A DNA stretch of 64,000 bases from a virus (IMGVR_UViG_3300021964_010186:1-64000); one strand, 5' to 3'; numbered from the stretch's first letter, positions 26,711 through 44,612 are shown. Program-made: numbers and translations. Notes: generated from the sequence alone by a model not told the origin.

Positions 26711-28007
26711 AATATTTCTTTAACCATTCAAAGTCGTATGATAACATAAGTTGTTTATTATCACTACCGTGTGTTTGGTAATATTCCTGGGCATCCTTTG
26801 ATCCTTTGAGACACCACTCAGCATTCTCGCCTTCTCCCACTGTGAGCCATTTTTTCAGTCTGTGGTTGTTCTCCACTGTTGGTTTGCCCTGCAGAAGTTT
26901 GATAACTTCCCTGAAAGCGGTCCTCCAAGCCAACCATGGCGTCTCATTGAAATGATTAATAGCGGACAGTATGGGTATCCAATCATGTGGTGCTGATAGA
27001 GTAAAGTCCAATCCCGGTCTAGTGGTTTCCATCACTAACTTTTTATTGTATAATAGCACCGCTCCATGGCCATATTCCAAGCCGTTGACGGGATTTTTAC
27101 AATTAAAAATATAATGACAGGGATTCTTCATCCTGTCGGGCTGGAAGTCAAAGTTGAAGGTATCCACTATCTCCAGTTTTGGAAACACAGCAAAGAAGTA
27201 ATCAGTATCACTCATGGCGGCCGCAGTCATGTAAGCCAGTGTTTGTCCTTGGATGCCTTTGCTCCACTTGGCTCTTGGATATTTTAATTTGAGTTCATTG
27301 AATCTTTTCTCTGCACTGGGTTCGTCATAAGATATGAATATGATGTCCATGGGTTTCACATCATAATCAAGATCAAAATGCACACTGCGATCGATGTCAT
27401 AAAATTGTTTTAGATCGTCTCTGTGGGGGACCAACATTATGTCTTTTGTTTCACCCCAAGAATAAATTTTTTCATCCTCCCAGAAACTGGGATAGAAGTT
27501 TGGGACATCGAGATTTGTAAGATCCTTGTTGATCATCCATGTGTAGAAGTTGGTGGAACTCACATAAGATTCGTAAGGATCCTTGAGTTTGAAATAGGTC
27601 CTTGGCAAGGGTCTTTGGTACAGGGTAGGATTTGCGTGATAATTTATGTCTCGATAATCTCTCAAGAAATTTATGTCGTTCATCTGCTCTTTGAACTTCC
27701 GTGTGGGTATCAACAGCACGTTGCCTTCCTTGTTGAGACCTCCCATGGGATGGGTCGTGTACCAAACGTGTATCTGCTCACGTTCATGCTGTTCTGGTAT
27801 GAAATCCAGATCTATGTCGTCCAGTTTGACGAAATTGGAGAAAAACCAGAAATACTCCGTTTTCACATCGTCGACCACCGCTTTTAAAACTTCAAAATAA
27901 CTTCCGATGAAAGGGACTACCCTGGTGTTTGCTAGGGGTGACTGTATGTGAACGGTGTTTTTAAATCTTACCTGTATACTGTCGAATCCAGTCATAGTAA
28001 CTTTCAA
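26679..28007 (-). CDS. Glycosyltransferase-like protein (paralog of 40550-41449 with N-terminal extension)
   Basis: DIIFISYDEP, NPVNGLEYGHGAV, AWRTAFRE..KL align with DFVYISFREP, NNINGLVYGNGGL, AFTAGYREGVKM. Confidence 0.65.
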   Translation of the reverse strand: MKVTMTGFDSIQVRFKNTVHIQSPLANTRVVPFIGSYFEVLKAVVDDVKTEYFWFFSNFVKLDDIDLDFIPEQHEREQIHVWYTTHPMGGLNKEGNVLLIPTRKFKEQMNDINFLRDYRDINYHANPTLYQRPLPRTYFKLKDPYESYVSSTNFYTWMINKDLTNLDVPNFYPSFWEDEKIYSWGETKDIMLVPHRDDLKQFYDIDRSVHFDLDYDVKPMDIIFISYDEPSAEKRFNELKLKYPRAKWSKGIQGQTLAYMTAAAMSDTDYFFAVFPKLEIVDTFNFDFQPDRMKNPCHYIFNCKNPVNGLEYGHGAVLLYNKKLVMETTRPGLDFTLSAPHDWIPILSAINHFNETPWLAWRTAFREVIKLLQGKPTVENNHRLKKWLTVGEGENAEWCLKGSKDAQEYYQTHGSDNKQLMLSYDFEWLKKYYESKYKDTVR

Positions 28008-28923
28008 GTCCCTGTCTCAATGAAAACTGTGGTTGATAATCTAGGAGATCCTTGGCCCTAGTTATGTCTAGTGTGCCCCTCATTGGATAAAGTTTCTGCA
28101 TTCCGATGTCCTTGATCTCAGAGTTACTGCCCGTGATGTCGATTATCGTCTCGGCGAGTGTCCTCAAACTGGTCGCGTTGCCCGCCGTTATGTTGAAACT
28201 GGTGTTTGCCACCTCAGAATTGGCCGCTTTGATTATGCCGTAGGCGGCATCCTGCCTGTAAGTGAAATCAACCTTGTTTTCACCGTTGTGTAAGGTTATC
28301 TGTTCGCCCTTCATCGCCTTCGCGAAAAACTTGGAAACAACCCTGTCTGGTAGATCTCCCGGACCATACACTCCACTGGGCCTCACTATCACGTAATTCA
28401 ACCCATCCCTCTGTGCGAACAACTTGGTCATCCTCTCTCCCGTCAGTTTGGCCTCACCATAGATGTTCGTGGGCTTGGTTGTGGAATCCTCCCGTGTACC
28501 ATCCTTAAAATCTCCATACACCATGCTACTGCTGATGTAAACAAATTTTTTTGTTCCAAATTTAGATGCGTGCCAGAGTAGATTGGTCGTTGTGTCTATC
28601 ACCTTTGGGATACCCAGCATCGGATTCTCGTCGACTATTTTTGCCCTCGGGTAAGTAGCAAGGTGTATCACTATGTCGGGTTTTGATCTGAATGCTCTCA
28701 GACAGATGTCTTTTTCTAGTATGTCTCCTTTTATTATGCTTACCTTTCCATTGTCCCAATTCCTGGTCCTCCAGGCTATCAATTTATTCAGGTCTATCGT
28801 CGAAATGATATCATACGTGTCTATGTTGTCAACACATATGACATTGTGTCCGTCATTAGTTAATTTTTCAATTATTTTACTTCCTATGAATCCTAACCCA
28901 CCTGTTATTAAATATTTCATCAA
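27961..28923 (-). CDS. NAD-dependent epimerase/dehydratase
   Basis: ITGGLGFIG, IHLA, ISSSMVYG, YGEAK, VYGPG. Confidence 0.92.
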   Translation of the reverse strand: MMKYLITGGLGFIGSKIIEKLTNDGHNVICVDNIDTYDIISTIDLNKLIAWRTRNWDNGKVSIIKGDILEKDICLRAFRSKPDIVIHLATYPRAKIVDENPMLGIPKVIDTTTNLLWHASKFGTKKFVYISSSMVYGDFKDGTREDSTTKPTNIYGEAKLTGERMTKLFAQRDGLNYVIVRPSGVYGPGDLPDRVVSKFFAKAMKGEQITLHNGENKVDFTYRQDAAYGIIKAANSEVANTSFNITAGNATSLRTLAETIIDITGSNSEIKDIGMQKLYPMRGTLDITRAKDLLDYQPQFSLRQGLESYYDWIRQYTGKI

Positions 28924-29069
28924 AATTCCTTCTTTATTCCCACTGTTGGATTTTCAATACAACTGTCTTTGATCTCTTTCATAGTCTCCTTGTTGAGATC
29001 CACATTACAGCTCGCATTGGGTTTGATCCCGCAACCTACCATCAATAATAACACAATTAGGTATCTCAT
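28920..29069 (-). CDS. 49-aa lipoprotein (below ORF-track cutoff)
   Basis: MRYLIVLLLMVGC-GIKPNASCNVDLNKETMKEIKDSCIENPTVGIKKEF*; lipobox-like MVG/C; overlaps both neighbouring genes. Confidence 0.65.
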   Translation of the reverse strand: MRYLIVLLLMVGCGIKPNASCNVDLNKETMKEIKDSCIENPTVGIKKEF

Positions 29070-30538
29070 CCTAGTACTTTGACTCCATAACGGTTGGTAA
29101 ATGCTCGACCATCCTCCCTGTCATTGACTATAGGTTGACCTTTAATGTTTAGACTGGTGTTTAGGAGTATGGGGCAACCCGTCTGTTTTTTCCATTCTGT
29201 GAGCAGTGCGTGGAACCCTGGATTGTCCGTCTTACGCACCGTTTGAACCCTACTTGTAGAATCATGGTGTATGATAGCAGGAAACTCTTTACCATGCGTA
29301 CACGCCGCTGTAAATTGCATATAAGGGGTGTTTTTGACTGCTTTAGGCAGGGTGAAATACTGGTCTACATCCTCCTCTAGTATGGCTGGTGCAAACGGTC
29401 TGAACTGCTGTCTCTTCTTGATGCTGTTTACCAAATCCTTGATGTCATCACCCCTTGGATCTGCTAGTAATGATCTATTACCAAGCGCCCTTGGTCCGAA
29501 CTCCGCCCTACCACTGGCCACTCCCACCATCCGGTTTTCCTTTAGTTCCTTGATCAGTGCGTCCACAGGATACTCTCCATCTATGTTGTGTCCCAGGAAT
29601 GGGTGTTGCCAGTTCAGTCTCTTCTGCTCATGCGCGGCTATACAGCCCAGGCTCGATCCCGCGTCTCCAGGGTTGGGTATGATCCAGATGCTGTCGAACA
29701 GTCCCATGTCGGCCAGCACACGATTGGCGGCGCAGTTGAGCGCGACCCCGCCAGCGTACACCAGGTTCCTACTACCGTACTTGGATGCCCTAGACCACAG
29801 GTCCGCGAGGCACTCCTCCGTGACTGCCTGTATCGAGGCCGCGATGTCCATGACATCTGCGTTTGGTTCCCAATCGCTCAATCCACGGTGTAGGTTCTGT
29901 TTGAGTTTGAAGGGGGATTGATGCACGAAGTCGTCGTAGATCTGTTGCTTGTACTTGGGCGTTCCATACGCGGCCATGCCCATCAGAATGTATTCTTCCT
30001 CCGCTGGCTTTAACCCACAACGATGTGTGAACGCGGAATACAGTATGCCTATGCTGTGTGGATACCTTATGGTCTCTTTCCTGTGTATCCAACATTTGTC
30101 GCCCACTGATATCGAAACCGTGTCCCACTCACCTATGGCGTCCACCGTCAGTATGGTGGCACCCTCGTCCACGAACGGAGACGTGAAGTAGCCCGCCGCC
30201 GCGTGTGAGTCGTGGTGCTTTACGTACTCGTCTATCTTTATACCGAAGTGGTCCAAGTGCCACTGTGGCATCTCGGTGTAGCTCAGCGCCAGCCCGTACT
30301 GTCCAGCGTAGAACTGTCGGGTCTTCTTGAGCAGTGGCTTCTCGTAGTACACCACCTTGTCGAAGGGACCAAAGGTGTAGGCCTCGTCCACTATCCGCTG
30401 GTTGAGGTAGTGATCGTTCTTGACCTTGCTGTAACGCTCCGCGTGTGCGGCCCACAGGATCTCACCTATGCCCGAGCCGTAGTCCACCACCGCCATGGCG
30501 GCATCGTGATTCATGCAGTTGATCCCTAGTATCCTCAT
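29066..30538 (-). CDS. O-carbamoyltransferase (NodU/CmcH/TobZ family)
   Basis: HDAA, ERYSKVK, HHDSHAA, DAIGE, MGMAAYG, GGVALNC, GDAG, EFGPRALGNRS, FRPFAP, LLNTSLN. Confidence 0.93.
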   Translation of the reverse strand: MRILGINCMNHDAAMAVVDYGSGIGEILWAAHAERYSKVKNDHYLNQRIVDEAYTFGPFDKVVYYEKPLLKKTRQFYAGQYGLALSYTEMPQWHLDHFGIKIDEYVKHHDSHAAAGYFTSPFVDEGATILTVDAIGEWDTVSISVGDKCWIHRKETIRYPHSIGILYSAFTHRCGLKPAEEEYILMGMAAYGTPKYKQQIYDDFVHQSPFKLKQNLHRGLSDWEPNADVMDIAASIQAVTEECLADLWSRASKYGSRNLVYAGGVALNCAANRVLADMGLFDSIWIIPNPGDAGSSLGCIAAHEQKRLNWQHPFLGHNIDGEYPVDALIKELKENRMVGVASGRAEFGPRALGNRSLLADPRGDDIKDLVNSIKKRQQFRPFAPAILEEDVDQYFTLPKAVKNTPYMQFTAACTHGKEFPAIIHHDSTSRVQTVRKTDNPGFHALLTEWKKQTGCPILLNTSLNIKGQPIVNDREDGRAFTNRYGVKVLG

Positions 30539-30948
30539 TTCCTATCTCTTATATCTTGCATTATTAGAAAGGCCCACATGTCTGCTTCTTTGTGTGTGAC
30601 TCTAAAATCGTATTTTTTAGGTTCCTCGAACATCTTGTTTGTATCATCGAACCTTCCTTCTTTGATCGTGTCCATCCATACAGTGTAGTCTGCCTTGAAC
30701 TGTGATCTGGTCTCTTCCGTTGGGCACACGAAATCCGCCACCACGTTCCTTCCCCTGTCTACCGCTTCTTCTGCCATGGTCCACATACGCAGTGATTGTC
30801 TACGCCTGCCTTTATCTGAGAAGTCCCAGTCATCACACTGCTTCCTCACCTCGTCAGCGTTCAACCAGACCGCATTCATCCTCTGTGAGATTATCCTCGC
30901 CAGCGTGGTCTTTCCAGAACCCGGTAGTCCCATTATCAGTATCTTCAT
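30535..30948 (-). CDS. Adenylylsulfate-kinase-like P-loop kinase
   Basis: MGLPGSGKTT, LNADEVR, WDFS..GR.RQ, ADFVCP, FEEP; start ATG 30948. Confidence 0.75.
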   Translation of the reverse strand: MKILIMGLPGSGKTTLARIISQRMNAVWLNADEVRKQCDDWDFSDKGRRRQSLRMWTMAEEAVDRGRNVVADFVCPTEETRSQFKADYTVWMDTIKEGRFDDTNKMFEEPKKYDFRVTHKEADMWAFLIMQDIRDRK

Positions 30949-31508
30949 GCCATCCTCAAAAATTTCTTGGTCCTGTTCAGGTACTCCCGCCACTGTTCCA
31001 GCGTGATGTCGTATTCGAAGTTCTGTGTGGTCTCATTCCGTCTCAGCAGTTTGGCACCGTTCTTGACGTGGAACCGTTCCGCCATCTCCGTGAGTGGAGA
31101 TAGTGTCACCAACCTGTCTATGTGGTGTTCACCCCTGTATTTCTTGTACACCTCGTTCAGTATGTGCTTGCCACCGCCCCGCTTACGTGCCCACACCGTG
31201 TAGGCCACCGCTATCCTGCCCACTATACTTGCCCTGTGGATCGCTTGGTTTGTGGCGTCCTGGCTCATGAGATCCATCTCCTCCACGGAGCGTGGCACCT
31301 CGTTGGTGAAGGCCAAACATATGATCGCGGCCGTGTCGCCCTCCTCATCCTTGAGTCCCAGCATCTTCCTGCCATGCGACCTACGGAACTCCACGGTGAG
31401 TTCGGGTCTAACCGGATCTTCTGAAACGTCTATATCATTCAACTCAACGAGATCAAATCGTGGATCTCGCTTGAACAGATCTTTGATTTTCTGTTTTATC
31501 TTTTCCAT
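30945..31508 (-). CDS. Hypothetical protein, possible GNAT-like fold
   Basis: AVAYTVWARKRGGGK (resembles the R/QxxGxG loop), VTLSP, FHVKNGA. Confidence 0.55.
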   Translation of the reverse strand: MEKIKQKIKDLFKRDPRFDLVELNDIDVSEDPVRPELTVEFRRSHGRKMLGLKDEEGDTAAIICLAFTNEVPRSVEEMDLMSQDATNQAIHRASIVGRIAVAYTVWARKRGGGKHILNEVYKKYRGEHHIDRLVTLSPLTEMAERFHVKNGAKLLRRNETTQNFEYDITLEQWREYLNRTKKFLRMA

Positions 31509-31626: not shown

Positions 31627-32412
31627 CTATATCAGTTTATTAAAGGTTGGTAACATCAATTGTACAGCATCCGCATGCGCTTGGTCAAGTGGATGTGTGG
31701 TGCCACGCGGGTAATCATTGAGCAGTGCCCATTGGTTAAAACCCATACAACGTTCGCCGAAGAAGAACCACTTGGAGAGATCCATCTCCGAGTGCAGGGC
31801 ATTCATGAAAGGATCCTTATTTTTGTGGTGGGTGAATTCTTGGTAAAAAAGACTGTTGTCCGCTAAGGTGAACATGTATGGAATATTCTTCTTCTCCAAG
31901 ATGTTCTGCAACCACGTGATGCTCTTCCAACTGAGGTATATCTCGTGGTATTGGCTGGCCGCGTATTTGTATATGGCCTCCGCAAAGTCTCGTACACCGG
32001 TTTCTTTAAAGAGTTCTTTCCTCACACGCCATTGCTCTTGCTGTGTCTCCGATCCCTGCATGGTCCTCAATGCCTCCTCGTTGCCGGCATTGGTGTCCCA
32101 TGGGGAGATGGATGCCCATCGGGTATCTTCCAGCACCTTGTGTCTGGGCATGGCCCAGTCATACCTGGAGAGGAGACTCCACATAACCACCACGCATTCC
32201 ACATCGGTGTTGTTGGCCACCGCGTTGAACACACGCCTCGCTATGGCTTGATTGCCCAGACCTCCAAACGCCGTGCACAGGTATTCGTGTCCTGATTCAC
32301 TGGAAAGTCCGTGCGCCCAGGTCTTCTTGGATGGTGTCTTTCCATCCACATCGTCGCTCAGCTCGTTGCCAAGTGTGAAACTGCATCCGCCCGCTATCAA
32401 TTTCTTAGTCAT
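31627..32412 (-). CDS. SGNH/GDSL-like protein
   Basis: AGGCSFT, GGLGN..I.RR, VMWS...R, TTHPL...H. Confidence 0.6.
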   Translation of the reverse strand: MTKKLIAGGCSFTLGNELSDDVDGKTPSKKTWAHGLSSESGHEYLCTAFGGLGNQAIARRVFNAVANNTDVECVVVMWSLLSRYDWAMPRHKVLEDTRWASISPWDTNAGNEEALRTMQGSETQQEQWRVRKELFKETGVRDFAEAIYKYAASQYHEIYLSWKSITWLQNILEKKNIPYMFTLADNSLFYQEFTHHKNKDPFMNALHSEMDLSKWFFFGERCMGFNQWALLNDYPRGTTHPLDQAHADAVQLMLPTFNKLI

Positions 32413-33571
32413 ATATCCTCAATACTTTATTTAAAAGAGGGAACACCTCACCAAAATTTTCCTTGCGGTACTGATCGGTCTGCAGGATCCTGGCCTTGCG
32501 TCGTTCTCGCATCTCGGCGGTGTCCCTGTCCGCGGCGTTCATGAACCTCAGCGTGGGCTGGAAGTCGGTCAGCATACTGTACCTGGAGTTGATGATGTTC
32601 TTGGCCTGCCGGGGCAGTGTCTGTACGTTGAAGTAGTCGGGGTCGAAGCAGGTGTTCACATAGAAGAACTTGGGCTGGAACTGTGCCACCCACAGGGCTA
32701 TCTTGGCCCAGTTGAAGACATTGAATATGGAAACTGTTGTGCAGATCTGGAAGTCCATGTTGGGGGTCCGTCTCTCCTTGAATTTGATCAGATTGGCATT
32801 GACTTGGCGCCAGTTGGCCGGGTGCCTCTGATACTCGAATGGCTCGCCCACGTCATCGATGCTGAACGCTATCTCCACGTGCTTGAAGTAACTCCATAGG
32901 TCAAATATCTCTATGGGAGGCAGTTGCGTGCCGTTGGTGTTGTAGTGTATGTCTATGTTCTTTGCATAGCCCTTCTCCACACAGTGCATTAATATCTTGA
33001 AATGGTCTTTTATCATGAACGGTTCGCCGCCTGTGAACTCGAAGTATTGCACGTGTTTTAGGTCTTCCTTGAGGTCCTCGAAGAACTTGGGATTGCGTTT
33101 CGGCCAGCCACCCTCACGTAAATTTTTAAGTGCGACTGGATTCTCTCCGTAGTCCAGTTCTTCCTGTGCCCACTTGCTGGAACTCCAGGAACCGCATATC
33201 CTACACTTGAGATTACACACGTTGCCCAACTTAAAGTCTATGAACTTCAGCGTTGGCTCGCTATCAGGTGTCCAATCCGTAAGACTTTTCTTCATTTTGT
33301 AAATCGAGTTCTGTCGCTTGGAAGTCTTGCCCGCATCTTCTTCCTGCCAACAGCTCTGGCAACCTTTTGGTCTTTCACCATTACGGAACTGTTCTCTCAG
33401 TTTCTCCATGTATTCTGTGTGCTGTATGGATTTAAGACTCTGGTTGTATACTTTCACCTCGGGCACACTTCCTTTATATAGACAGCAGGGTGATGCACCA
33501 CCGTTCACATCAACTTCTAGATGTGTCCATGGCAAAGGACACATGTTTGATTTTATATACTTGTCCACCAC
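32405..33571 (-). CDS. Radical SAM protein, N-terminal twitch-like domain
   Basis: CPLPW..PCC..GCQSC; NVCNLKCRIC; FTGGEP; NTNGT. Confidence 0.9.
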   Translation of the reverse strand: MVDKYIKSNMCPLPWTHLEVDVNGGASPCCLYKGSVPEVKVYNQSLKSIQHTEYMEKLREQFRNGERPKGCQSCWQEEDAGKTSKRQNSIYKMKKSLTDWTPDSEPTLKFIDFKLGNVCNLKCRICGSWSSSKWAQEELDYGENPVALKNLREGGWPKRNPKFFEDLKEDLKHVQYFEFTGGEPFMIKDHFKILMHCVEKGYAKNIDIHYNTNGTQLPPIEIFDLWSYFKHVEIAFSIDDVGEPFEYQRHPANWRQVNANLIKFKERRTPNMDFQICTTVSIFNVFNWAKIALWVAQFQPKFFYVNTCFDPDYFNVQTLPRQAKNIINSRYSMLTDFQPTLRFMNAADRDTAEMRERRKARILQTDQYRKENFGEVFPLLNKVLRIYD

Positions 33572-34887
33572 TCTAATGCTTTCTTGTTTTTTGCTAAGAT
33601 TTTTTTGATATCTGTGCCACGGATACTATCTAGTCTCTCTATTTCCGCTTTGCCATCCTTCTGACCTTTTCTGTACAACTCTTCATCGTAAACTAACTCG
33701 TTGTTCCTTTTTTGTTTCTGCATTTCGTCTAACTGCGAAAAGAAATTGTTTAATTTTTTGTTTTTGTATTTGATTGTCTTTTCTCTAACATCATCTATTA
33801 TCTCAGTCATAATGTCATAAGGCATGAACAAAGGTGCCATAGCATTGTTATGGGAGAAGTTAAAAACTTGTTTAGTCAACAACTCGATGTTCAGCTCATT
33901 ACTTAACAGCACCATATTTTCCAAATCAAACAATCCCGGTAATGTAATAGTTAGGTCCAACTGCAGTCTTTGATTTTGCTCTTTTACGAATTTTAGTCCA
34001 TACTTTATATTTGTTAACCATTCATCATACTTTAGACCAGTTCTTATGTACTCCCCAATTTCCCCGGTACCATCTATTGAAGCACAAATTTGCCAATTAG
34101 GAAAGTACCTTAATATGTCGTCAAACAAGTTGTATTTGTAGAAATTTATCCTACTCATATTAGAATTGTACCTTGCTAATACTTTATCTTGGTAGCCAAG
34201 TTCTACAATCCTTTTCATCGCTTCCCAGTGTATCTTCCACATCAGAGGTTCTCCCCCACACCAGTATAGTTCGGTTATACGTTTTTGTTCAACCGCTTCT
34301 GTGAATTCCTTCACTACTTGCTGATCATGGAATAGTTCTAACTGTGCTTTGATGTCTTTCCTGCCCCATATCCTATATCGTTCGTAATCGCCCTTACCGT
34401 GTTTCTTATTCTCAGTTTCCCATGTACTACTCAGCATATCTCCACACATCCTACAACTAAAATTGCACAGATTAGAAAACCTATAATCAAAACTTTGTGT
34501 CTTCATTGTGGTGGCACCTGTTTCATCTGTGCTGTTGTACGCTTGTTCTATGTTGTTCCTATACAACCAATTAAAGTGTTGTCTGTACACCTGTTCATTT
34601 AACAATTTGTGATTGCACACAGTACACTGAGGGATTTCCTCACCTGCTAATAACTTTAACCGCACAGACTTCATATAGTCAGAATTCCAGTGCTGTTCTA
34701 ATGTGGTTAGATTCAATTTGTCATTATTACCTTTTGGGTCTATAGTGTCTATGTACTGTTTGAAGTTTTCGCTTGATTCTCTAGAACTACAACACAACCT
34801 TCGTTCCATCTGTGGCGACAGGTAAGTGTGCGTCCATGGTGCCATGCAGAATGTCTTGTTGCCCTCGTTAGGTTTAATTCTTTTCAT
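33553..34887 (-). CDS. Radical SAM protein, N-terminal twitch-like domain
   Basis: FCMAPW..LCC..CTVC; NLCNFSCRMC; CGGEP. Confidence 0.9.
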   Translation of the reverse strand: MKRIKPNEGNKTFCMAPWTHTYLSPQMERRLCCSSRESSENFKQYIDTIDPKGNNDKLNLTTLEQHWNSDYMKSVRLKLLAGEEIPQCTVCNHKLLNEQVYRQHFNWLYRNNIEQAYNSTDETGATTMKTQSFDYRFSNLCNFSCRMCGDMLSSTWETENKKHGKGDYERYRIWGRKDIKAQLELFHDQQVVKEFTEAVEQKRITELYWCGGEPLMWKIHWEAMKRIVELGYQDKVLARYNSNMSRINFYKYNLFDDILRYFPNWQICASIDGTGEIGEYIRTGLKYDEWLTNIKYGLKFVKEQNQRLQLDLTITLPGLFDLENMVLLSNELNIELLTKQVFNFSHNNAMAPLFMPYDIMTEIIDDVREKTIKYKNKKLNNFFSQLDEMQKQKRNNELVYDEELYRKGQKDGKAEIERLDSIRGTDIKKILAKNKKALEWWTSI

Positions 34888-36157
34888 ACAACTCCTGTAA
34901 TTCAGGAAACACCGTGAGCATGTCTTCGTCTCTAATCAAGTCTAATTTTTTCATTATGTCTTTGAACTGTCCTAAATCCTTGCTGTTGTTCCTCCTCATC
35001 ATGTAATCCAGACCTGATTCATAACCTTTTGTGGCCCTGGTCAGATGATCTAACGGTTTTAACCATTCAAGATGTTTCTCATATTTTTCTTTTACTTTCT
35101 GTTTGTATGATTCCGGCAATAGATCGATCCTCTGCGGGTATGGAAACTGTAACAGATTGAAATTGAAGTCCTGTGGTTTCAGTAATCCTTGATCTACCCA
35201 GTTCCTGTGGAAGTCTGGTATGTGTAGCGCATTAATCAAACCCACCGTTGAACTGATATAGAAATCCACTTGCGGACAAACCTGTAACATGCGTCGCCTA
35301 TTAGCCACAACTTCTTCCCATACGGTACCTTTACGCATAAGTTCACCTCGCTTACCTTCCGCATCGAGACTGGCGCCTATTGAAACCGAATCAAATTTGT
35401 TCCAAAGTTCGAGTATGTCTATGTCTTTAAATCTCGTCTTGGTGAAATTGGTATTATATATCAATCTGACATGATACATCTTTCGCCTGTCTAATTCCTT
35501 CAATATCCTGTAGTGCTCTTCCATTATAATGGGCTCCCCACCTGCGAAATAGAACTGTTCCACATGATCGAACTGATCCAACATCTGTGTCCATATGTCA
35601 TCACTGCTTCTACCTACACGCATGACCTTTGCGTGATTAGGTGGTAATCCTGTAAGTTTCTTGTGATCCTCATACCAATTGGAACTGAACCAAGTGCCAC
35701 AACTCCGGCAGGCCAGATTACACAGGTTGCTGAACCTTATGTCCCAATACTTGATCACAAAGTCAGCCGTGCCATCTGGCTGAGTATTATCTACCATTCC
35801 TATGTTGTGTCCAAAATGTTTGTTTGAACTCAATCTCAAACTGAAGAATCCTGATTGTTCCTGATCATAGCATTTGGTACATTGTTTGCTGGTTTTGTTT
35901 GCCAACATATTGTTTCTGATACCTTTCATTGTATCGTTATTGAACACTTCCACCATGGAATTCTTGTTCAGATCGCCGACTGGATACTTGTCTAAAGCAA
36001 AGCAACAAGGATAGGCCCTACCATCGGGGAAAGCATGTATATGCAACCATGGCATCATACAGAAGGTATCACTGTCTATAAGCAATTCTTTTTGCCTATC
36101 TGTCATGTCCTTGATCTTTAGTTTCTCGGGTTCTTTAGCTCCGTAATCATATGTCAC
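34874..36157 (-). CDS. Radical SAM protein, N-terminal twitch-like domain
   Basis: FCMMPW..PCC..CTKC; NLCNLACRSC; FAGGEP. Confidence 0.9.
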   Translation of the reverse strand: MTYDYGAKEPEKLKIKDMTDRQKELLIDSDTFCMMPWLHIHAFPDGRAYPCCFALDKYPVGDLNKNSMVEVFNNDTMKGIRNNMLANKTSKQCTKCYDQEQSGFFSLRLSSNKHFGHNIGMVDNTQPDGTADFVIKYWDIRFSNLCNLACRSCGTWFSSNWYEDHKKLTGLPPNHAKVMRVGRSSDDIWTQMLDQFDHVEQFYFAGGEPIIMEEHYRILKELDRRKMYHVRLIYNTNFTKTRFKDIDILELWNKFDSVSIGASLDAEGKRGELMRKGTVWEEVVANRRRMLQVCPQVDFYISSTVGLINALHIPDFHRNWVDQGLLKPQDFNFNLLQFPYPQRIDLLPESYKQKVKEKYEKHLEWLKPLDHLTRATKGYESGLDYMMRRNNSKDLGQFKDIMKKLDLIRDEDMLTVFPELQELYEKN

Positions 36158-37490
36158 GATACCATTCTCCTATAATCGGAAAGGTCTTCTCAAAATCCTT
36201 TCCACTGCGTTTGTCATACTGACTGTAGAATGCTTTGAAATCTTGTTGTAGTTTGTCCTGTGTGGCCGCACCCACATGTGGTGTTTTCACCACGTCCAAG
36301 TAATCGATTAATCTCTGTGTATGATCTATTTCCATGGGGTGTAACCATTTCTCATTACTAGTTAAGAACTTTTCTAATCCTCCTTTAAATTTGTTCCTTA
36401 GTTCATCTGGTAGCACTAGTGGTGATTGGAAACTTGGAAATCTCAATATGTTCAAAGTGAAGTTGATCGACGGTCCATACACCTTGCCTGCATTTTTCAA
36501 CCAGACTATCTTTTCGAGAAATTCTGGCAGTGATTCTAAACACAACGCATTGATGGTCGACATATTGTGTATCTCTGACGGTATCTTATCCACCATCATG
36601 TGTAAAACACGACTGAACCAGTCACCGTAGTCGAGACCGTCCCTTATGTATTCCGCTTGAGAGAATGTTGCTTCACAACTTGTGTACAGATGAAAGTTTT
36701 TGAATCCTTTTAATTTACGTTTGAACCTATCAATTATACTATCCTTGGCTCCGAGGTTTGAATTAATTGCTATATTCATATTCGGATTCATTTTATCACC
36801 TTGTGTTTCTATCCAGTCCAATAACCTCCATAGGTTTGGAGACATCATTGGTTCTCCTCCCGTGATTCTCAATTCATTTAGTGTCTTATGCAAATCAGAT
36901 TCCCACCATCTGTAAAATGCTTCCACGTAGGGATTGGTTTCATCTTTCTTGTAGGGCTCTGCACTGTTGTGTGGATGAGTAAAATGATTTCGGCCATCGG
37001 ATTTCAATCCAGTGTATGGCCCTTTTTGCTTGATGTTATTTGCCCAGGTTGAACTAAACGCAGGATTACAATATGTACAAGCAAAATTACACGTTCTATC
37101 AAATGCTATCTCCAGTGTTTTTAAATTCACATCTTCGTTGTGATCTAATTTGTAAGCCGTGTCTAGCTCGTTGTTAGTGAATATCTTTGATTTGTACACC
37201 CTGTCACTGATATTATCCCTGTGTATGTCCTCAATCTTCCAACAATATTCACAGCCTGCCGGTCTTTCACCATTCTGCATTTGCCTACGTTGTTCTTTCT
37301 TCTGTGGTGTGTTGTGCAGAAGTTTTGGATTGGACTGAACGGCAATAGGATCAACCTTGTGTGGCAACGGATGGTGACAGCTCGTGGTCATCCCCGAGCC
37401 CAACCATATTGTGGCGTTGTACCACTTGGCCCCACAGAAACTTGCTGACTTTGTATCTAATATCTTTTTCTTATATTCGAGATCGTCCAT
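36147..37490 (-). CDS. Radical SAM protein, N-terminal twitch-like domain (AKW subtype)
   Basis: FCGAKW..SCHHP..GCEYC; TCNFACTYC; ITGGEP. Confidence 0.9.
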   Translation of the reverse strand: MDDLEYKKKILDTKSASFCGAKWYNATIWLGSGMTTSCHHPLPHKVDPIAVQSNPKLLHNTPQKKEQRRQMQNGERPAGCEYCWKIEDIHRDNISDRVYKSKIFTNNELDTAYKLDHNEDVNLKTLEIAFDRTCNFACTYCNPAFSSTWANNIKQKGPYTGLKSDGRNHFTHPHNSAEPYKKDETNPYVEAFYRWWESDLHKTLNELRITGGEPMMSPNLWRLLDWIETQGDKMNPNMNIAINSNLGAKDSIIDRFKRKLKGFKNFHLYTSCEATFSQAEYIRDGLDYGDWFSRVLHMMVDKIPSEIHNMSTINALCLESLPEFLEKIVWLKNAGKVYGPSINFTLNILRFPSFQSPLVLPDELRNKFKGGLEKFLTSNEKWLHPMEIDHTQRLIDYLDVVKTPHVGAATQDKLQQDFKAFYSQYDKRSGKDFEKTFPIIGEWYRDI

Positions 37491-37605
37491 CTTTCCCCTT
37501 GAAATAATCTTTCAGTTTATTGTATTCGTGTTCCGGACAGAGCGTGTCACTCTCGAACATCACGTCCTTGACCCAGTGATAATGTGCTATCGTCTTCTTG
37601 CTCAT
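37471..37605 (-). CDS. 44-aa hypothetical protein
   Basis: MSKKTIAHYHWVKD...; ATGA-coupled to the upstream gene. Confidence 0.5.
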   Translation of the reverse strand: MSKKTIAHYHWVKDVMFESDTLCPEHEYNKLKDYFKGKDGRSRI

Positions 37606-38216
37606 GAATTCATCCTTTGGTATACCTTTTCTGCCCATTGTTGATTTTGTTCTACGGTCATGTGATTGATTGTGCCAATACCCCAACCGTCCTTGACGAT
37701 TGCCCCCTTGCTGAATGCAAATATACTTTCGTCTATGACCGTGCCCGTCTCTAATTTGATACCGGCATCCTTGCCCGCCGTTTCAAAAGGTCGGAAACTC
37801 CACATCTGCACGATGGTTTTATCTTCGAGCGTTGATAACACGTTCTGATCATAATACTTCAATGCGTATTCGTAGGCCAACTCGTCTTTGTCATAATCGT
37901 GTAGATGTATCCAGTACTGTTCCAATGCCTTGTAAAGGTTTGGATCAACACCATCCAACGGTTGTGTGTTCGCACTTAAGGTGTATCTTGGGTGGTAAAG
38001 CCTGTATGGCTCAGTCCAACAGAATATCGAAACATCTGGGACGCTGTCCTGTTCTATTAGTCTGTTGAAACGCATAAACACACTCCAGATACTGCGTCCA
38101 GGTTCACCAAACCATCTTATCCTAGAACACCCTAGTTTCTCCTGTAGGATGTTGCACCAGCTCTCGGGTTGATTGCTGGCACAGAAACTGTCTCCAAAAA
38201 ATCCTATTGTCCTCAT
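37602..38216 (-). CDS. SGNH/GDSL-like protein
   Basis: GFFGDSFC, G.PG.S, FCWT.P.R, INH near the C-terminus. Confidence 0.6.
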   Translation of the reverse strand: MRTIGFFGDSFCASNQPESWCNILQEKLGCSRIRWFGEPGRSIWSVFMRFNRLIEQDSVPDVSIFCWTEPYRLYHPRYTLSANTQPLDGVDPNLYKALEQYWIHLHDYDKDELAYEYALKYYDQNVLSTLEDKTIVQMWSFRPFETAGKDAGIKLETGTVIDESIFAFSKGAIVKDGWGIGTINHMTVEQNQQWAEKVYQRMNS

Positions 38217-39196
38217 TGTGTAAACCTAAACAAGTCAACTTTCTTGCTCCCTTTTGTTTTGATTAGGAATTCCCTGTTCCAGTCAGTTCTTTCGAAATGT
38301 TGTTTGTTGTGCTCTAACACATCATTCAATCGTGCATAGACGGACTTAGGATCCTGTACACTGAGTTGATGCATAGAATCAAATACCATGTTGAATCTCT
38401 TATCCCTTTCCTTTTCGTTGTCATAACTTTCATCTATGACAGAGGAAAATGTTTTAAAGCCCAAATTACGTAATGCCCGAAGTTGTCCTTGAGATCCAAA
38501 AACAACAAAGGGACGTTTAGCCACAATCGGTTTAGCGGTCTTTTCCGTGAAAACGCCAAAGTCTTTATGCCACGTTGTTTCTATGAATGCAGTATAGAAG
38601 GTGTTGTTGTAGATTTCAGGATCTATAAGATCACTGTATCTTAATGTGCTCTTCCATTTTTCTTCTATGGTTTCCGCCGTGTGATTCACAGGCACTTTCA
38701 CATGTTTACTCCATCTGCCTTGTCTTGGATCGTCCCTGTAGTATGTCGTTAACACTTGTTCATTCACAGGATGACCCTTTAGTGTATCAAACAAAATGTC
38801 CTTGCCGGTATCTGTGCCACCCATTAAAAAATCAAATTTCTTTAGTTTGTTGGATTTATCTTTGACGTCAATACAGTTTTCAAGCAATCCTCTACACATG
38901 TCGTTCTTGATGTAAAGGTCCTGTCCCTCATGAAACATGTTATTAAGAAATTTCAATGGTAGTCCTTGTTGATTGGCAAAATTACAACCGTAATAGTGAA
39001 TGTTTGATTTATGGATGTTTGCTTTTATTAAATCCACAAATGTCCTGTGCACGCCATCCTCTTCATACACGAAACCCGGCTCATACAGATTCACAATTAT
39101 GTTAGCGTAATTTCTATGTTCTTGATCAATCAATTTTTGAAGTCTTTCACCCATGTCCGCTCCACTGGTGTATATGTTAATCAGTAAAGTGCTCAT
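38213..39196 (-). CDS. Glycosyltransferase-like protein (GT10-like C-terminal motif), AT-rich
   Basis: FIET...VFTEKTAKPI...PFVVFG...LGFKTF..VIDESYD. Confidence 0.55.
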   Translation of the reverse strand: MSTLLINIYTSGADMGERLQKLIDQEHRNYANIIVNLYEPGFVYEEDGVHRTFVDLIKANIHKSNIHYYGCNFANQQGLPLKFLNNMFHEGQDLYIKNDMCRGLLENCIDVKDKSNKLKKFDFLMGGTDTGKDILFDTLKGHPVNEQVLTTYYRDDPRQGRWSKHVKVPVNHTAETIEEKWKSTLRYSDLIDPEIYNNTFYTAFIETTWHKDFGVFTEKTAKPIVAKRPFVVFGSQGQLRALRNLGFKTFSSVIDESYDNEKERDKRFNMVFDSMHQLSVQDPKSVYARLNDVLEHNKQHFERTDWNREFLIKTKGSKKVDLFRFTQ

Positions 39197-40563
39197 GCGT
39201 TCCTACACTCCTCCCAGAATTCCGCCATCTCAGGGAACGTGTTGAGGAACCTGGTCAGGCGCCTGCGATCGTGTTCCGAGAAAAAAGCGTAAAAATTACG
39301 TTTGTGCTGTGCGCTCGCGTCAGCGTTCTCGCGCCAGTATGCGAGATTGCGTCGCATCTTCTGGATCTCGAAGTCCTTGAATATGTGTAGCCCGTTTGAC
39401 TCGCCGGAGTTGGCCTCCATGTACTTGATGTTGTCTTCGTGTATGCTCTGGTAACTCTCGGGTAATAATGTTATCTGTTGCCATGCGGGTTGGCGTAGCA
39501 GTGGCACGTCAAACCAAACACGCTGATAAGTTTTACTGTATCGCTTACGCAGATCCAGTATCTTTTCCAACAATCGGTCCATGCTGGTTATACTGAGGTT
39601 GTTGTAGGTCACTATGAAGGTTATGCTGTTACGCACTGGTATGCGATCCAGGAACTCCTCCACGTTCGCCATCATGCGATCGAAGTCCAATCCATGCCTG
39701 ATGTACTCGGCGCGTTTGCCGAACGCATCCACGCTGACGAACTGCATCATGTGTTCCACCTTCTCCTCCATGCAGATATTCTGCATCATGTTGAAGTACT
39801 TGTCCTTGAGTTTTGGGTCGGCCGGACACATGTTGGATGTTACGTTGAGATGTAGGTCCTCTTTGGGATGGTCAATGATGTACTGTAGCACCCGGTAGGT
39901 GTTGACATCCATCATGGGCTCCCCACCGGTCATGCGGAAGTGCTTGAGGTTCTTGTACAGTTCTGGCCACCATCGCCAGAAAGCGTCAACGTATGGGTTG
40001 GACTCCCTGTTGGGTATTGGACTCCTGCGTCCCTGGAAGTGCTCGGGAGCGTTGTGCGGTGGCGTGGTGGGGTACTCCCCATAGCGTTCCGTCTCCTTGC
40101 CCCAGGTGGTGGAGAACTGTGGCGAACAGTAACTACACTTGAAGTTACAAGCGTGGCTGAAGTTGACCTCCACGTACCTGGGCATCCATGTCTCAGACAA
40201 TGGATTCTTTACAATTTCTTCAAAGTCCTGCATGGCCCATGGCTCTCCCGAACGGTAGTGACGATCACTCATCTCACCGGCGTCCTCCAGTTTCCAGCAG
40301 TAACTACAGCCCGCGGGCCTCTCACCCGCCAGCATCTGTCGTCTTTGCTTCAACTTCTCGTTGGTGTTGTGAAGTGCCGTGGGATTGCTATGTAGTTTTG
40401 TCGCGTCAATCTCGTGCAGGGGTGGATGGTAGCAACTGTTGGTCAGTCCCGTTGGCAGGTGCAGTGACACCTGGTTCCACTTGGCCAGGCACATGGTGGG
40501 CGAAACTGTGGCCAGTTTCTGCTCGGCCTTCAGCGCATCATTCTTGTAGTCACTTGTACTCAC
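39193..40563 (-). CDS. Radical SAM protein, N-terminal twitch-like domain (AKW subtype)
   Basis: MCLAKW..SCYHP..GCSYC; ACNFKCSYC; MTGGEP; clear paralog of 36147-37490. Confidence 0.9.
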   Translation of the reverse strand: MSTSDYKNDALKAEQKLATVSPTMCLAKWNQVSLHLPTGLTNSCYHPPLHEIDATKLHSNPTALHNTNEKLKQRRQMLAGERPAGCSYCWKLEDAGEMSDRHYRSGEPWAMQDFEEIVKNPLSETWMPRYVEVNFSHACNFKCSYCSPQFSTTWGKETERYGEYPTTPPHNAPEHFQGRRSPIPNRESNPYVDAFWRWWPELYKNLKHFRMTGGEPMMDVNTYRVLQYIIDHPKEDLHLNVTSNMCPADPKLKDKYFNMMQNICMEEKVEHMMQFVSVDAFGKRAEYIRHGLDFDRMMANVEEFLDRIPVRNSITFIVTYNNLSITSMDRLLEKILDLRKRYSKTYQRVWFDVPLLRQPAWQQITLLPESYQSIHEDNIKYMEANSGESNGLHIFKDFEIQKMRRNLAYWRENADASAQHKRNFYAFFSEHDRRRLTRFLNTFPEMAEFWEECRNA

Positions 40564-41449
40564 GATCCTGCACTCCTTTATTACTGTGTTGTGGCATGAC
40601 GAACTTGAAGAACCTGCTGTCTTCCACGCTGTAATCTGCCACTGGTATGTCTAATCTCTGCCTAATGCTTTCCCCATAAGTGTTGAGGTCTGCGTGTACA
40701 TTCTGTTCATCCAGGTAGTTTGCAAACACCTCGTGCATACGATCTATGTCACTGATGCCCATTGCCCATTCGTGGCTCTCTACCGAGGTCTGGTAACACC
40801 CTATCCTGGCTCCCAACATAGCCCATAGTCCATTATCCACATCCGCGCCCACTGTCATCCACGTGGTCAGTATCCTCAGGTTCTGTGGCCAGATGTTTTT
40901 GAATTCGCGTGGAGGTATCGGCACTCCCTTGTTGGTGCACATCTTGACGCCCTCCCTGTAGCCCGCAGTGAATGCCTGGTATTTGTCACCGTTGATTACA
41001 GTGGTGCTGTAGCAGTTGTGTAGGTTCTCGTGTGGTACGCCCCAACAGAAATCCAGTTTGTTTTCCTCGCTGTCAGCGTTCTCGTGTGTCTTCATAGCAA
41101 GGCAGGTCTCCTTGTGCCAGCCCACCAGTCCACCATTACCGTACACCAGTCCGTTGATGTTGTTCTTGGCCCTCCACCTGTGCACTGCCTTGGGATCGGT
41201 CTTTGACCAGTCCAGGGTCTGTATTAGGAAGCTCTCATCTATTATGTTGTCACCGTCCACGCTGATGAAGAAATCGGTCTCCGCCAGTTCCGCCGCGGCC
41301 TTGTGTGCGGAATCGAAACCCACCACACCATCCACACGCTTGGCCCATGGCACTTTGTTCTTGAGGTCAGCCCAGTTCTGCTCCTTGTTGGGTTCACGGA
41401 AACTGATGTACACGAAATCCAGGTCGCTTACTCTGACTCTATCTGCCAT
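40550..41449 (-). CDS. GT-A fold glycosyltransferase-like protein
   Basis: YISFREP, DSAHKAAA, FISVDGDN (DxD motif). Confidence 0.7.
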   Translation of the reverse strand: MADRVRVSDLDFVYISFREPNKEQNWADLKNKVPWAKRVDGVVGFDSAHKAAAELAETDFFISVDGDNIIDESFLIQTLDWSKTDPKAVHRWRAKNNINGLVYGNGGLVGWHKETCLAMKTHENADSEENKLDFCWGVPHENLHNCYSTTVINGDKYQAFTAGYREGVKMCTNKGVPIPPREFKNIWPQNLRILTTWMTVGADVDNGLWAMLGARIGCYQTSVESHEWAMGISDIDRMHEVFANYLDEQNVHADLNTYGESIRQRLDIPVADYSVEDSRFFKFVMPQHSNKGVQDREYK

Positions 41450-41733
41450 GCCTCTCCTCCCTGCATTATTCCGTTGGGCCAGTGTATGTCGCCGTGCTCG
41501 AAACTGTAGCCCTTTTCCGCCTTTACAAGAACACTGAATCGTGTTTTAGGCTTTGGTGGTGGTCTCAGTTCGAACCGAGTGGGTGACACCCAGTGGTAAG
41601 ACTGCTCACCTTTTCTCATAATTTCTTTCTTTTTATCTAGACTGACCACAACCTCCCTTCCTTCTATACAGACAGTATGCTGTTTCTCAACCACAGGCGG
41701 CATAGACTGCAGAGCCTTAAGAAGTTCTGACAT
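41428..41733 (-). CDS. Hypothetical protein
   Basis: Start ATG 41733 (MSELLKAL) after AAGGAG. Confidence 0.6.
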   Translation of the reverse strand: MSELLKALQSMPPVVEKQHTVCIEGREVVVSLDKKKEIMRKGEQSYHWVSPTRFELRPPPKPKTRFSVLVKAEKGYSFEHGDIHWPNGIMQGGEAWQIESE

Positions 41734-42511
41734 AAATCTCCTTGTCGTGATAGTGCCATGGCCTGTTGATCCTTCTCTCACCGAGATAGATCGCATCGCC
41801 GTTCTGGTTGGGATAGAGGTAGTTGTTGTGATCACCCACCCTGTCGAGACGGTTGACGGCGGGCTTATGGTGTAGGAACTTGAACCACTCGTAGTCGATC
41901 AGGTGCTTGTTGGTGGGGTCCATCATCCTATAGGCCAGTGCGAACACCACGTCAGTGCTGGGATAATCATCATGACAGTTTATCAGCATCGTTGTCTTGA
42001 CCTCTCGCCAGTTCATCGTGATGTGCCTGGCCGTGTCAAAAAACTTTTGTGCGGTTTTGCTTTTCCTGAAGTACATCAGTCCGTTGTATATGTTGGGTAG
42101 GCAATTCCTCACGAACAGTGCCCTGTAGGGAGTGTGTTTGACTATTTCATCCTTGTAGTTCCTACAGTCAACGCTGAACACCATGTCGTGTTGCCACAGG
42201 TGATGCCACCACCAATCGGTGTTGTCAGTCCATAACACATCGGCCTCTAACTTGATCGTGTGGGTGAAAGGTGTCATGTGGAACGCCTTGTGTTCGTTGG
42301 CCCACTTGATCTCGTGTTCTGAGCTGTCATCCTGTTTTAACACTTTCACGATATCCACCGCGGGGTGTTCAAACCTGCTGTTCTCATCCGTGACCACACA
42401 AATTTGATTTTCTCTGTTATATCTCTTGATACTTTCTGCGAGTTTTATGCTTAACCCAACGTAATCTGTCTTGCTGTTGTTCTGTGCGAACCATAGGAAT
42501 CCCTTAGACAT
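41717..42511 (-). CDS. GT-A (GT8-like) nucleotide-diphospho-sugar transferase
   Basis: KGFLWFAQN, TPFTHTIKLEADVL (ExD), YNGLMYF, STDVVFALA. Confidence 0.65.
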   Translation of the reverse strand: MSKGFLWFAQNNSKTDYVGLSIKLAESIKRYNRENQICVVTDENSRFEHPAVDIVKVLKQDDSSEHEIKWANEHKAFHMTPFTHTIKLEADVLWTDNTDWWWHHLWQHDMVFSVDCRNYKDEIVKHTPYRALFVRNCLPNIYNGLMYFRKSKTAQKFFDTARHITMNWREVKTTMLINCHDDYPSTDVVFALAYRMMDPTNKHLIDYEWFKFLHHKPAVNRLDRVGDHNNYLYPNQNGDAIYLGERRINRPWHYHDKEIYVRTS

Positions 42512-43621: not shown

Positions 43622-44608
43622 TTACGTCGTTGTACCGGTGGGGTTGCTTTCGTTGCCTACCGTGCTGTGTGCGTACACCACGCTCAGTCCCTCTGACGTG
43701 TTTGGTGTTATCGCGAAGAGGTTGGTCACCATCCTAGGAGTGTCGTTGATCGCCGGCGCAACACCATCAAAATTGGGGTTATCGTACTGTTGGTCACCCG
43801 CTGGATCACTGGCCACCATCTTGATGACCATGGTCACTGACGTGCCTGGTGCCGCGTCCAACTTGGCAGATATCTGCACCGTGTTCGACGTGTAGGCGGA
43901 GTTGTCTGATGTTAGTATGATAAGTTCCTGATAACTCGTGGTCAGGTCATGGAAACCCAATGTAAGTCCCGAACCGCCTGAACTTGGACTCTCGCCTGAT
44001 CCCGATCTCGTAGTGGCCTGTGCGCCGATGTCGATGTTGCCCAGGGCCGTGCCCAGGTCTATGAATGCTTGGTCTTTGGGATTGGTGGAAGCCTGCGTGG
44101 TGCTGGTCACTATCCTGACCTTGCCGCCCGCGTTGAAGAACCATCTCATCTGATCCGCCGATGACCACGTGATGCTGTGTTCGTGGGTGGCCGTGTTGTC
44201 CCAGCCCTCTGATGCTGTGGTGATGGTCTGCAATGATGTTCCTAGTGTCAGTCCACCGCCTATAACAGCGCCCGTACAACCACCCGCTACCGATGCCGCC
44301 AGTGTGGCTAGGTCCGCCTCCACAGCCGCCTTGATGGCTATGGTGTCTCCCGCTGAAACCTGTGTTCTTGTTGTAAGAGTGTCATTGGTGTGATTGGCGA
44401 TGTTGTCCATGCCGGTGAAAAGTGTGTTCCACTGTGATGCTGTGATTGTTCCCGCACCCGATGAAACTGTTGGAATCGCTGTCTGTCCAAGACCGTGTAC
44501 TCCCGATCCTGTGCCCGCGAAATGGTTGTACCCAAATGGTGAACTTGAACTGTTCACGAAAGTGTTGTATTCTGTTGCTAATATCGTGTCACCTGCTACG
44601 TATGCCAT
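43622..44608 (-). CDS. Virion structural protein (tail/baseplate-associated)
   Basis: Thr/Ser/Gly-rich; MAYVAGDTILATEYN, ITASQW, RWFFNAGG. Confidence 0.65.
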   Translation of the reverse strand: MAYVAGDTILATEYNTFVNSSSSPFGYNHFAGTGSGVHGLGQTAIPTVSSGAGTITASQWNTLFTGMDNIANHTNDTLTTRTQVSAGDTIAIKAAVEADLATLAASVAGGCTGAVIGGGLTLGTSLQTITTASEGWDNTATHEHSITWSSADQMRWFFNAGGKVRIVTSTTQASTNPKDQAFIDLGTALGNIDIGAQATTRSGSGESPSSGGSGLTLGFHDLTTSYQELIILTSDNSAYTSNTVQISAKLDAAPGTSVTMVIKMVASDPAGDQQYDNPNFDGVAPAINDTPRMVTNLFAITPNTSEGLSVVYAHSTVGNESNPTGTTT

Positions 44609-44612
44609 AAAT

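Follow-up and report, generated by a model that had tools for sequence, protein, structure and literature searches.

Which substrate could call for five radical S-adenosylmethionine (SAM) enzymes encoded in close succession by one phage is the question raised by the viral DNA analysed here, IMGVR_UViG_3300021964_010186:1-64000. This stretch of 64,000 nucleotides, the window, is a portion of a 79-kb IMG/VR virus record with a CheckV completeness of 22%, and the five genes, labelled A, B, C, D and E, extend from position 32405 to 40563 in window coordinates. All of them encode members of N_Twi_rSAM, i.e. the NCBIfam family NF033640 of twitch domain-containing radical SAM proteins, and this array probably serves to tailor a glycan.

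Domain architecture and family membership

An earlier reading of this DNA from the sequence alone (the original prediction) had described the array as radical SAM enzymes with an inverted, i.e. N-terminal, twitch-like domain, and translations of the open reading frames (ORFs) and their alignment reproduce its motifs exactly. In every copy, C-x18-C-x~40-CxxC precedes CxxxCxxC and then GGEP, with first twitch motifs of the CxxPW...CC type in A (CPLPW...PCC), B (CMAPW...LCC) and C (CMMPW...PCC), and of the CxAKW...SC[HY]HP type in D (CGAKW...SCHHP) and E (CLAKW...SCYHP). The four N-terminal cysteines, the three cluster cysteines and GGEP are common to A–E without exception, and the invariance of C134/C138/C141 and G211-G212-E213-P214 (numbering of D) places the proteins in the radical SAM superfamily. 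Against NF033640, which has a curated cut-off of 170 bits, A–E score between 290 and 412 bits (E 1e-86 to 1e-123, model positions ~1-398), and all six family members in the window, including one outside the array, lie above the cut-off over the full model length.

The N-terminal domain also shows Pfam SPASM matches in A (residues 11-75, E 3e-7) and C (residues 33-97, E 2.9e-10), with the Pfam Radical_SAM domain being matched in A. The CX2CX5CX3C part of the seven-cysteine SPASM motif is missing, i.e. there is CxxC only and no further conserved cysteine after it, and the domain is thus a twitch domain rather than a full SPASM domain. Residues 165-235 of BtrN are weakly matched (E 0.5) by a profile built from the N-terminal domains of all six copies, which puts all four cysteines on the twitch segment of BtrN, including C169, C232 and C235. 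In all six copies, however, this auxiliary domain is N-terminal and not C-terminal as in BtrN. The family matches, the Pfam matches and the weak BtrN alignment all argue for an N-terminal, inverted twitch-like domain. This inverted architecture is real but had already been catalogued by NCBI, and since chromosomal bacterial members exist as well, though rarely, the description as a phage family does not hold. By contrast, the attribute 'uncharacterised' stands as far as could be searched: a profile search of PDB sequences yielded no solved relative of N_Twi_rSAM, only generic radical SAM pieces, and in the literature we found no paper on N_Twi_rSAM function or on an N-terminal twitch or SPASM domain, and nothing relevant tying radical SAM enzymes to jumbo-phage glycosyltransferase and tail-fibre genes.

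An AlphaFold2 model of D, based on a 54-sequence alignment (predicted local distance difference test, pLDDT, 89.2; predicted template modelling score, pTM, 0.87), places a predicted hairpin (strands E25-29 and E34-36) between the first two cysteines, followed by helices, the radical SAM barrel and a helical C-terminal domain. The best matches among solved structures cover the core only, with Z scores of 13.3 for SkfB, 13.0 for BlsE, 12.4 for MoaA and 11.9 for anSME, and with PFL-AE, SuiB, DesII and viperin following at about 11. As modelled, the fold confirms the radical SAM superfamily and leaves the substrate undecided. In BFVD, the whole D model matches many 'uncultured Caudovirales' proteins with template modelling (TM) scores of 0.6-0.77. 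More weakly (0.52-0.69), it also matches, over its whole length, proteins of the T4-like vibriophages KVP40 (Q6WHP4) and phi-pp2 (I6XCF1) annotated as 'MoaA/NifB/PqqE family'; tblastn gave no match to these two proteins, which, judged by the model, may be distant and culturable N_Twi_rSAM relatives.

Gene context and fusions to glycan machinery

A glycan is favoured as the substrate because transferase-fold and sugar-nucleotide genes accompany these radical SAM enzymes in distant phages as well as in bacteria, and because two family members are fused to glycan-handling domains. The original prediction had named glycans or structural proteins, and it is the former that gene context and the two fusions support better, the latter less so.

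Above the cut-off, N_Twi_rSAM members were detected in 4 of 401 sampled Bacteroidota genomes (counting the centre genome), in 2 of 400 genomes of other Pseudomonadota and in none of 14 model genomes, and the bacterial members come in clusters of two to four. A chromosomal proteobacterial contig (G504:C19), which has dnaE close by, carries a tandem of four members, the first being part of an 854-aa frame in which ABC_tran (64-196) and the carbohydrate-binding Wzt_C domain (283-413) are followed by SPASM (432-500) and the radical SAM core (NF033640 299.8 bits over 429-830). Its neighbours are rmlD, rmlC, a WbsX glycosyltransferase, a TylF-type methyltransferase and a further methyltransferase, and an identical fusion was obtained, independently, from a JGI metagenome cluster (P0287). 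This fusion to Wzt hints at a substrate that is a finished, carrier-linked polymer on the cytoplasmic side. The second fusion, a 794-aa protein (P0192; 301.9 bits), joins a GT2 glycosyltransferase to a D/E-type member with CAAKW...SCHHP, the radical SAM half of which is 33% identical to E. Other GT2 fusions (P0273-P0278) proved to be ordinary C-terminal-SPASM radical SAM enzymes and were rejected as family members. In two of the Bacteroidota, N_Twi_rSAM genes lie near several PhyH/WelO5 dioxygenase genes, B12-dependent radical SAM (B12-rSAM) genes and a carbamoyltransferase gene, and in a third near a GT2-methyltransferase and GT22-like membrane transferases. In chromosomal clusters of the Bacteroidota genomes G081 and G285 (L100-L105), the N-twitch enzymes are accompanied by at least seven tandem genes for PhyH/WelO5-like Fe/2-oxoglutarate dioxygenases (two of them Pfam-confirmed), by B12-binding radical SAM enzymes, a carbamoyltransferase and a CN hydrolase, a pathway that is undescribed as far as we could tell.

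A reduced version of the same gene set occurs in a cultured phage. Among 50,697 phage records, a D/E-type radical SAM enzyme and relatives of the 299-aa and 272-aa proteins of the window (table 1) were found in a single record, the same for all three, namely that of the Ralstonia jumbo phage RsoM2USA; a megablast search of the region against this set of records, which may lack those close to the genome of the window, gave no match. RsoM2USA carries, in this order, a tail-fibre-like ORF, 249-like, 272-like and 299-like genes, one radical SAM gene (ORF349, its product sharing 34.7% identity with E) and a second 299-like gene, all of this directly downstream of the virion genes ORF361, ORF359 and ORF356, whose products were identified in purified virions (PMC8504454). 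From the gene order in RsoM2USA and in the marine loci, an ancestral unit of three transferase-like proteins and one D/E-type radical SAM enzyme can be deduced, the radical SAM part of which has been enlarged in the marine lineage. A 135-aa ORF of the window (41428-41835, minus strand) occupies the gap that separates the 272-aa from the 299-aa gene and shares ~120 nt with the former; at the matching position RsoM2USA has a 184-aa gene.

The cassette is widespread in metagenomes, with more than 8,000 homologues of D and at least 599 IMG/VR loci. In the 80 of these loci that were fetched for comparison, with identities down to about 36-60%, the order is tail fibre, tail fibre, 110-aa, 249-aa, 272-aa, 299-aa, E, (variable insert), D, C, A/B, 261-aa, (187-aa, kinase) and carbamoyltransferase, and the position of the tail-fibre genes is kept. 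The 299-aa protein, for which no family match was found and a sequence-profile search came back empty, gave an AlphaFold2 model (pLDDT 89) that matches B4GALNT1 (Z 10.3), CHSY3, WrtF, SpsA, SunS, TarS and PBCV-1 A64R as well as some nucleotidyltransferases (Foldseek, VIA), and its D65-G66-D67 (DGD/DxD) is invariant. A complex prediction for E and the 299-aa protein returned a score of 0.00, which gives no verdict. The C-terminal extension of P0184, considered as a possible relative of the 299-aa protein, is unrelated and was rejected. Further downstream (24745-31508), Pfam identifies a P-loop kinase, a NodU/CmcH-type carbamoyltransferase, an NAD epimerase/dehydratase, a DegT aminotransferase and a GFO oxidoreductase, and the C-terminal half of a 442-aa protein aligns with the 299-aa protein, i.e. 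represents a second GT-A-like domain. A joint profile of the 261-aa and 204-aa proteins weakly matches GDSL/SGNH esterases (E 0.0035), with G-x-S-F and one histidine invariant, and the 327-aa protein has a weak protein-atlas lead to GT10 fucosyltransferases (score 0.78).

Some of these genes would also suit other products. NodU/CmcH-family carbamoyltransferases act on antibiotics too and, together with the DegT and GFO genes, could point to a free small molecule, i.e. a sugar metabolite resembling an aminoglycoside or nucleoside antibiotic, instead of a macromolecule-bound glycan; BtrN, the characterised twitch sugar enzyme, acts on an aminocyclitol (PMC9012708). A glycan linked to a polymer or protein, however, agrees better with the three or four transferase-fold proteins and with the fixed site behind the tail fibres, the fusion to Wzt speaks for a polymer linked to lipid, and neither an exporter gene nor a resistance gene was observed in the window, which leaves a free metabolite highly improbable. 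The P-loop kinase, the aminotransferase and the carbamoyltransferase would equally be at home in a sugar-bearing hypermodification of phage DNA, in which the radical SAM enzymes tailor a base-linked sugar or side chain, and a QueE-like match is present in the same window (13674-13961). We consider this highly improbable, with the cassette immediately following the tail and baseplate genes, in the same direction, in the marine lineage as well as in RsoM2USA, bacterial members lying in an O-antigen-type cluster and fused to a polysaccharide exporter ATPase, and domain searches finding no DNA-binding or base-exchange domain in the cassette.

More has to be weighed where proteins are concerned. 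Most characterised SPASM/twitch radical SAM enzymes act on peptides, and A–E could be maturases of proteins or peptides (resembling anSME, sactisynthases or epimerases) and act on amino-acid residues of the neighbouring tail-fibre or other virion proteins, the sugar genes then being separate. The location of the array just downstream of tail-fibre genes, the presence of SkfB, SuiB, CteB and anSME among the top structural neighbours, the Bacteroidota relatives beside several PhyH/WelO5 and B12-rSAM genes and a weak match of the twitch region of C to the anSME model are all in line with this. That match is confined to C and to the twitch segment, however, and reaches 37.7 bits against the NF010321 cut-off of 441; the viperin, MoaA and QueE models remain at or below 30 bits (cut-offs 180-284), and with A–E none of the NCBIfam models for peptide maturases comes anywhere near its cut-off. 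Nor do the hallmarks of maturases for peptides that are ribosomally synthesized and modified post-translationally appear: there is no RRE/PqqD Pfam match, and the overlapping or abutting array genes hold no conserved small ORF and leave no room for one encoding a precursor. Moreover, family members are fused to Wzt and GT2, not to peptide-handling domains, and the D/E type accompanies glycosyltransferase-like genes even in RsoM2USA. Overall, peptide maturation seems unlikely.

Glycan tailoring has weak points of its own. The structural neighbours of the D model are tied and mix peptide maturases (SkfB, SuiB, CteB, anSME) with sugar enzymes (BlsE, DesII); the GT-A-like fold predicted for the 299-aa protein is common to nucleotidyltransferases too; the GT8 and SGNH assignments depend on weak E-values. 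Fusions are rare, the best 120 Wzt-like proteins including a single fusion of Wzt to the family, and the mix of PhyH/WelO5 and B12-rSAM genes in two Bacteroidota clusters also occurs in peptide pathways. Finally, cluster binding is predicted by homology.

Paralogues and array layout

The original prediction had counted five tandem enzymes in two subtypes. Five intact ORFs do lie on the minus strand at the expected limits, with overlaps of 19 nt (A/B), 14 nt (B/C) and 11 nt (C/D); two unrelated genes, however, keep D and E apart, and a family search of the whole virus record detected a sixth, highly divergent copy elsewhere (table 1). Similarly, D and E form a real clade (support 100), whereas A, B and C are not a second one: in what is a quick tree only, they represent three separate deep branches sharing an older motif, with the five orthogroup clades having supports of 99-100. 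Pairwise identities among A–E amount to only 20-27%, which indicates ancient paralogues rather than recent duplicates. A scan for promoters and terminators was uninformative except for a single terminator-like site (24641-24625) where the block ends.

Table 1. Genes and other features in and around the radical SAM array (window coordinates)
Feature	Position	Strand	Remarks
rSAM A, 388 aa	32405-33571	-	N_Twi_rSAM, CxxPW...CC type; NF033640 373 bits
rSAM B, 444 aa	33553-34887	-	N_Twi_rSAM, CxxPW...CC type; NF033640 306.8 bits; clade support 100
rSAM C, 427 aa	34874-36157	-	N_Twi_rSAM, CxxPW...CC type; NF033640 411.6 bits
rSAM D, 447 aa	36147-37490	-	N_Twi_rSAM, CxAKW...SCHHP type; NF033640 290.2 bits
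rSAM E, 456 aa	39193-40563	-	N_Twi_rSAM, CxAKW...SCYHP type; NF033640 327.6 bits; sister of D
Sixth N_Twi_rSAM, 374 aa	18848-19972	+	NF033640 224.7 bits; highly divergent, long tree branch; outside array
SGNH-like protein, 261 aa	31627-32412	-	Directly after rSAM A; kept in most loci
SGNH/GDSL-like protein, 204 aa	37602-38216	-	Variable D/E insert; present in some related loci only
Virus-only protein, 327 aa	38213-39196	-	Variable insert; no Pfam, NCBIfam or PHROG match
GT-A/nucleotide-diphospho-sugar-transferase-fold protein (predicted), 299 aa	40550-41449	-	Overlaps start of E
GT8-like protein, 272 aa	41717-42535	-	Profile weakly matches glycogenin (E 0.014); kept in 80/80 loci and RsoM2USA
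Paralogue of 272-aa GT8-like protein, 249 aa	42504-43253	-	Matches same RsoM2USA ORF; kept in loci
Two tail-fibre-like genes	43622-46241	-	Immediately upstream of cassette; PHROG tail-fibre and virion-protein matches
Downstream sugar-handling genes	24745-31508	-	Pfam matches, 187-aa protein, small ORF and 442-aa protein
49-aa lipoprotein-like ORF, MRYLIVLLLMVGC...	28920-29069	-	Lipoprotein-type signal

In a conservation check covering 64-76 sequences for each of the five orthogroups, the seven cysteines and GGEP are kept in every orthologue. Further kept residues are R68, R97, S146, N245, S271, R283, T312, P352 and D426 (numbering of D), with three B orthologues having Glu at D426. Nonsynonymous divergence (dN) is 0.06-0.3 at saturated synonymous sites, and its ratio to synonymous divergence (dN/dS) is at most 0.09 where computable (0.05 for A against its nearest orthologue). 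A–E are old, individually maintained genes under purifying selection. An additional invariant cysteine that might be a shared hydrogen donor was sought across the paralogues; each orthogroup has its own, at differing positions, which decides nothing. The D/E clade has an invariant S-C-[HY]-H-P-x-x-H at the second twitch cysteine as well as H169, H172 and H174 (in D) in an insert after CxxxCxxC; these histidine-rich motifs, which are missing in A, B and C, could by their sequence form an additional site for a metal or substrate.

Each of four relatives with a size of 316-354 kb (91-99% complete) contains 8-12 N_Twi_rSAM members, which indicates that the window, with its six copies, belongs to a giant-phage fragment. 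The family as a whole comprises 9,434 clusters at 50% identity (E <= 1e-30), and N_Twi_rSAM is a fixed, multi-copy component of an abundant, uncultured group of aquatic giant phages. In many metagenomic polypeptides of 800-1,400 aa (P0121-P0160), complete N_Twi_rSAM units follow one another in twos or threes; unless these are read-throughs in gene calling, paralogues that are separate here are fused elsewhere. Fusions to Sel1/TPR repeats are found in the representative library, too. Contigs 83-89% identical to C are filed in the marine metagenome-assembled genomes (MAGs) TMED41, TMED56 and MED606 (L081-L083), and a 'Legionellales' MAG (G002) has 13 N_Twi_rSAM matches; the MAGs concerned span four phyla or orders, and such matches are most simply explained as phage contigs binned into bacterial genomes. 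The sixth N_Twi_rSAM gene of the window is directly upstream of a gene for a MoxR-like ATPase (20065-21171), which is 50% identical to that of the Pseudomonas jumbo phage PA5oct. The 49-aa lipoprotein-like ORF shares 4 nt each with the final part of the carbamoyltransferase gene and with the first part of the epimerase gene and is 35-84% identical in at least seven related loci, with its cysteine and a C-terminal KKEF being kept.

A candidate mechanism and its relation to known systems

If the array does tailor a glycan, each protein would combine an N-terminal twitch domain of ~100 residues with the radical SAM core and a helical C-terminal cap, and the four invariant twitch cysteines would, by homology, hold a fully ligated auxiliary [4Fe-4S] cluster. 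Each paralogue would cleave SAM and abstract hydrogen at one specific sugar-residue carbon, and the resulting radical would be resolved either by electron transfer to the auxiliary cluster (with an alcohol becoming a ketone, as in BtrN) or by hydrogen being returned to the other face (epimerisation). Hydrogen abstraction followed by oxidation or epimerisation is favoured because a twitch cluster fully ligated by cysteines fits a BtrN-like electron transfer. Five diverged paralogues may thus edit five different positions or residues of a glycan that would be made by the conserved cassette directly behind the tail-fibre genes, i.e. by two GT8-like proteins, a GT-A-fold protein, the radical SAM enzymes, SGNH-like proteins, a carbamoyltransferase and amino-sugar genes.

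Most likely, the edited glycan ends up on the virion or on another phage-made acceptor. The virion is our leading guess, which we infer from the fixed site behind the tail fibres, the virus-only transferase families and the cytoplasmic assembly of virions. A more specific scenario, i.e. that the glycan is built on the phage's own tail fibres or virion proteins and that the attached sugars are then edited at the polymer level by a relay of at least five radical SAM enzymes, for example through epimerisation or oxidation at unactivated sugar carbons, is possible, if on balance doubtful. If true, such a relay would be the first radical SAM glycan-editing system and a route to sugars that are not recognised by host receptors, nucleases, grazers or defence systems. 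Through the fusions to Wzt and GT2, an unstudied radical SAM family gains a concrete hypothesis, radical glycan editing, which, if confirmed, would add a new kind of carbohydrate chemistry and possibly also a new layer of phage surface biology; RsoM2USA offers a cultured one-enzyme version suited to probing it.

Among known systems, BtrN, the 2-deoxy-scyllo-inosamine dehydrogenase of butirosin biosynthesis, has an auxiliary cluster ligated by four cysteines and a sugar-like cyclitol as its substrate (PMC9012708). By sequence, the window proteins share the four cysteines at near-equal spacing (C-x17/18-C-x~40-C-x2-C), which would bind a single auxiliary cluster, but their twitch domain is N-terminal instead of C-terminal, their similarity to BtrN remains below membership (E 0.5), and they have an extra helical C-terminal domain. 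With anSME, SkfB, SuiB and CteB they have in common the radical SAM core (Z 11-13) and a recognisable first half of the SPASM motif; in contrast to SPASM maturases, they lack CX2CX5CX3C, which would leave them with one auxiliary cluster instead of two, and also have neither RRE nor precursor peptide. The O-antigen export systems of the Wzt/WbdD type are related through the one bacterial N_Twi_rSAM fused to Wzt with its carbohydrate-binding Wzt_C, from which editing of a completed lipid-linked polymer ahead of its export is suggested, whereas the phage window is without Wzm/Wzt. The known terminal modifications of O-antigens are methyl or phosphate groups added by non-radical enzymes.

Virion glycosylation, as represented by A64R of PBCV-1 or by the capsid and tail of mycobacteriophages, similarly involves virus-encoded GT-A transferases beside structural genes, and the 299-aa protein has A64R as one of its structural matches; for the phage of the window, glycosylation of the virion is a proposal. 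The chlorovirus and mycobacteriophage systems are not known to contain radical SAM enzymes. Closest of all is NF033640 itself, a family with no assigned function, from which the window proteins, sharing its domain order and motifs, differ in nothing structural. To this family as catalogued, the window adds the context of a phage cassette and the relatives add the fusions to Wzt and GT2. It is these fusions, the co-restriction in RsoM2USA, the GT-A fold of the 299-aa partner and the size of the family that are new here.

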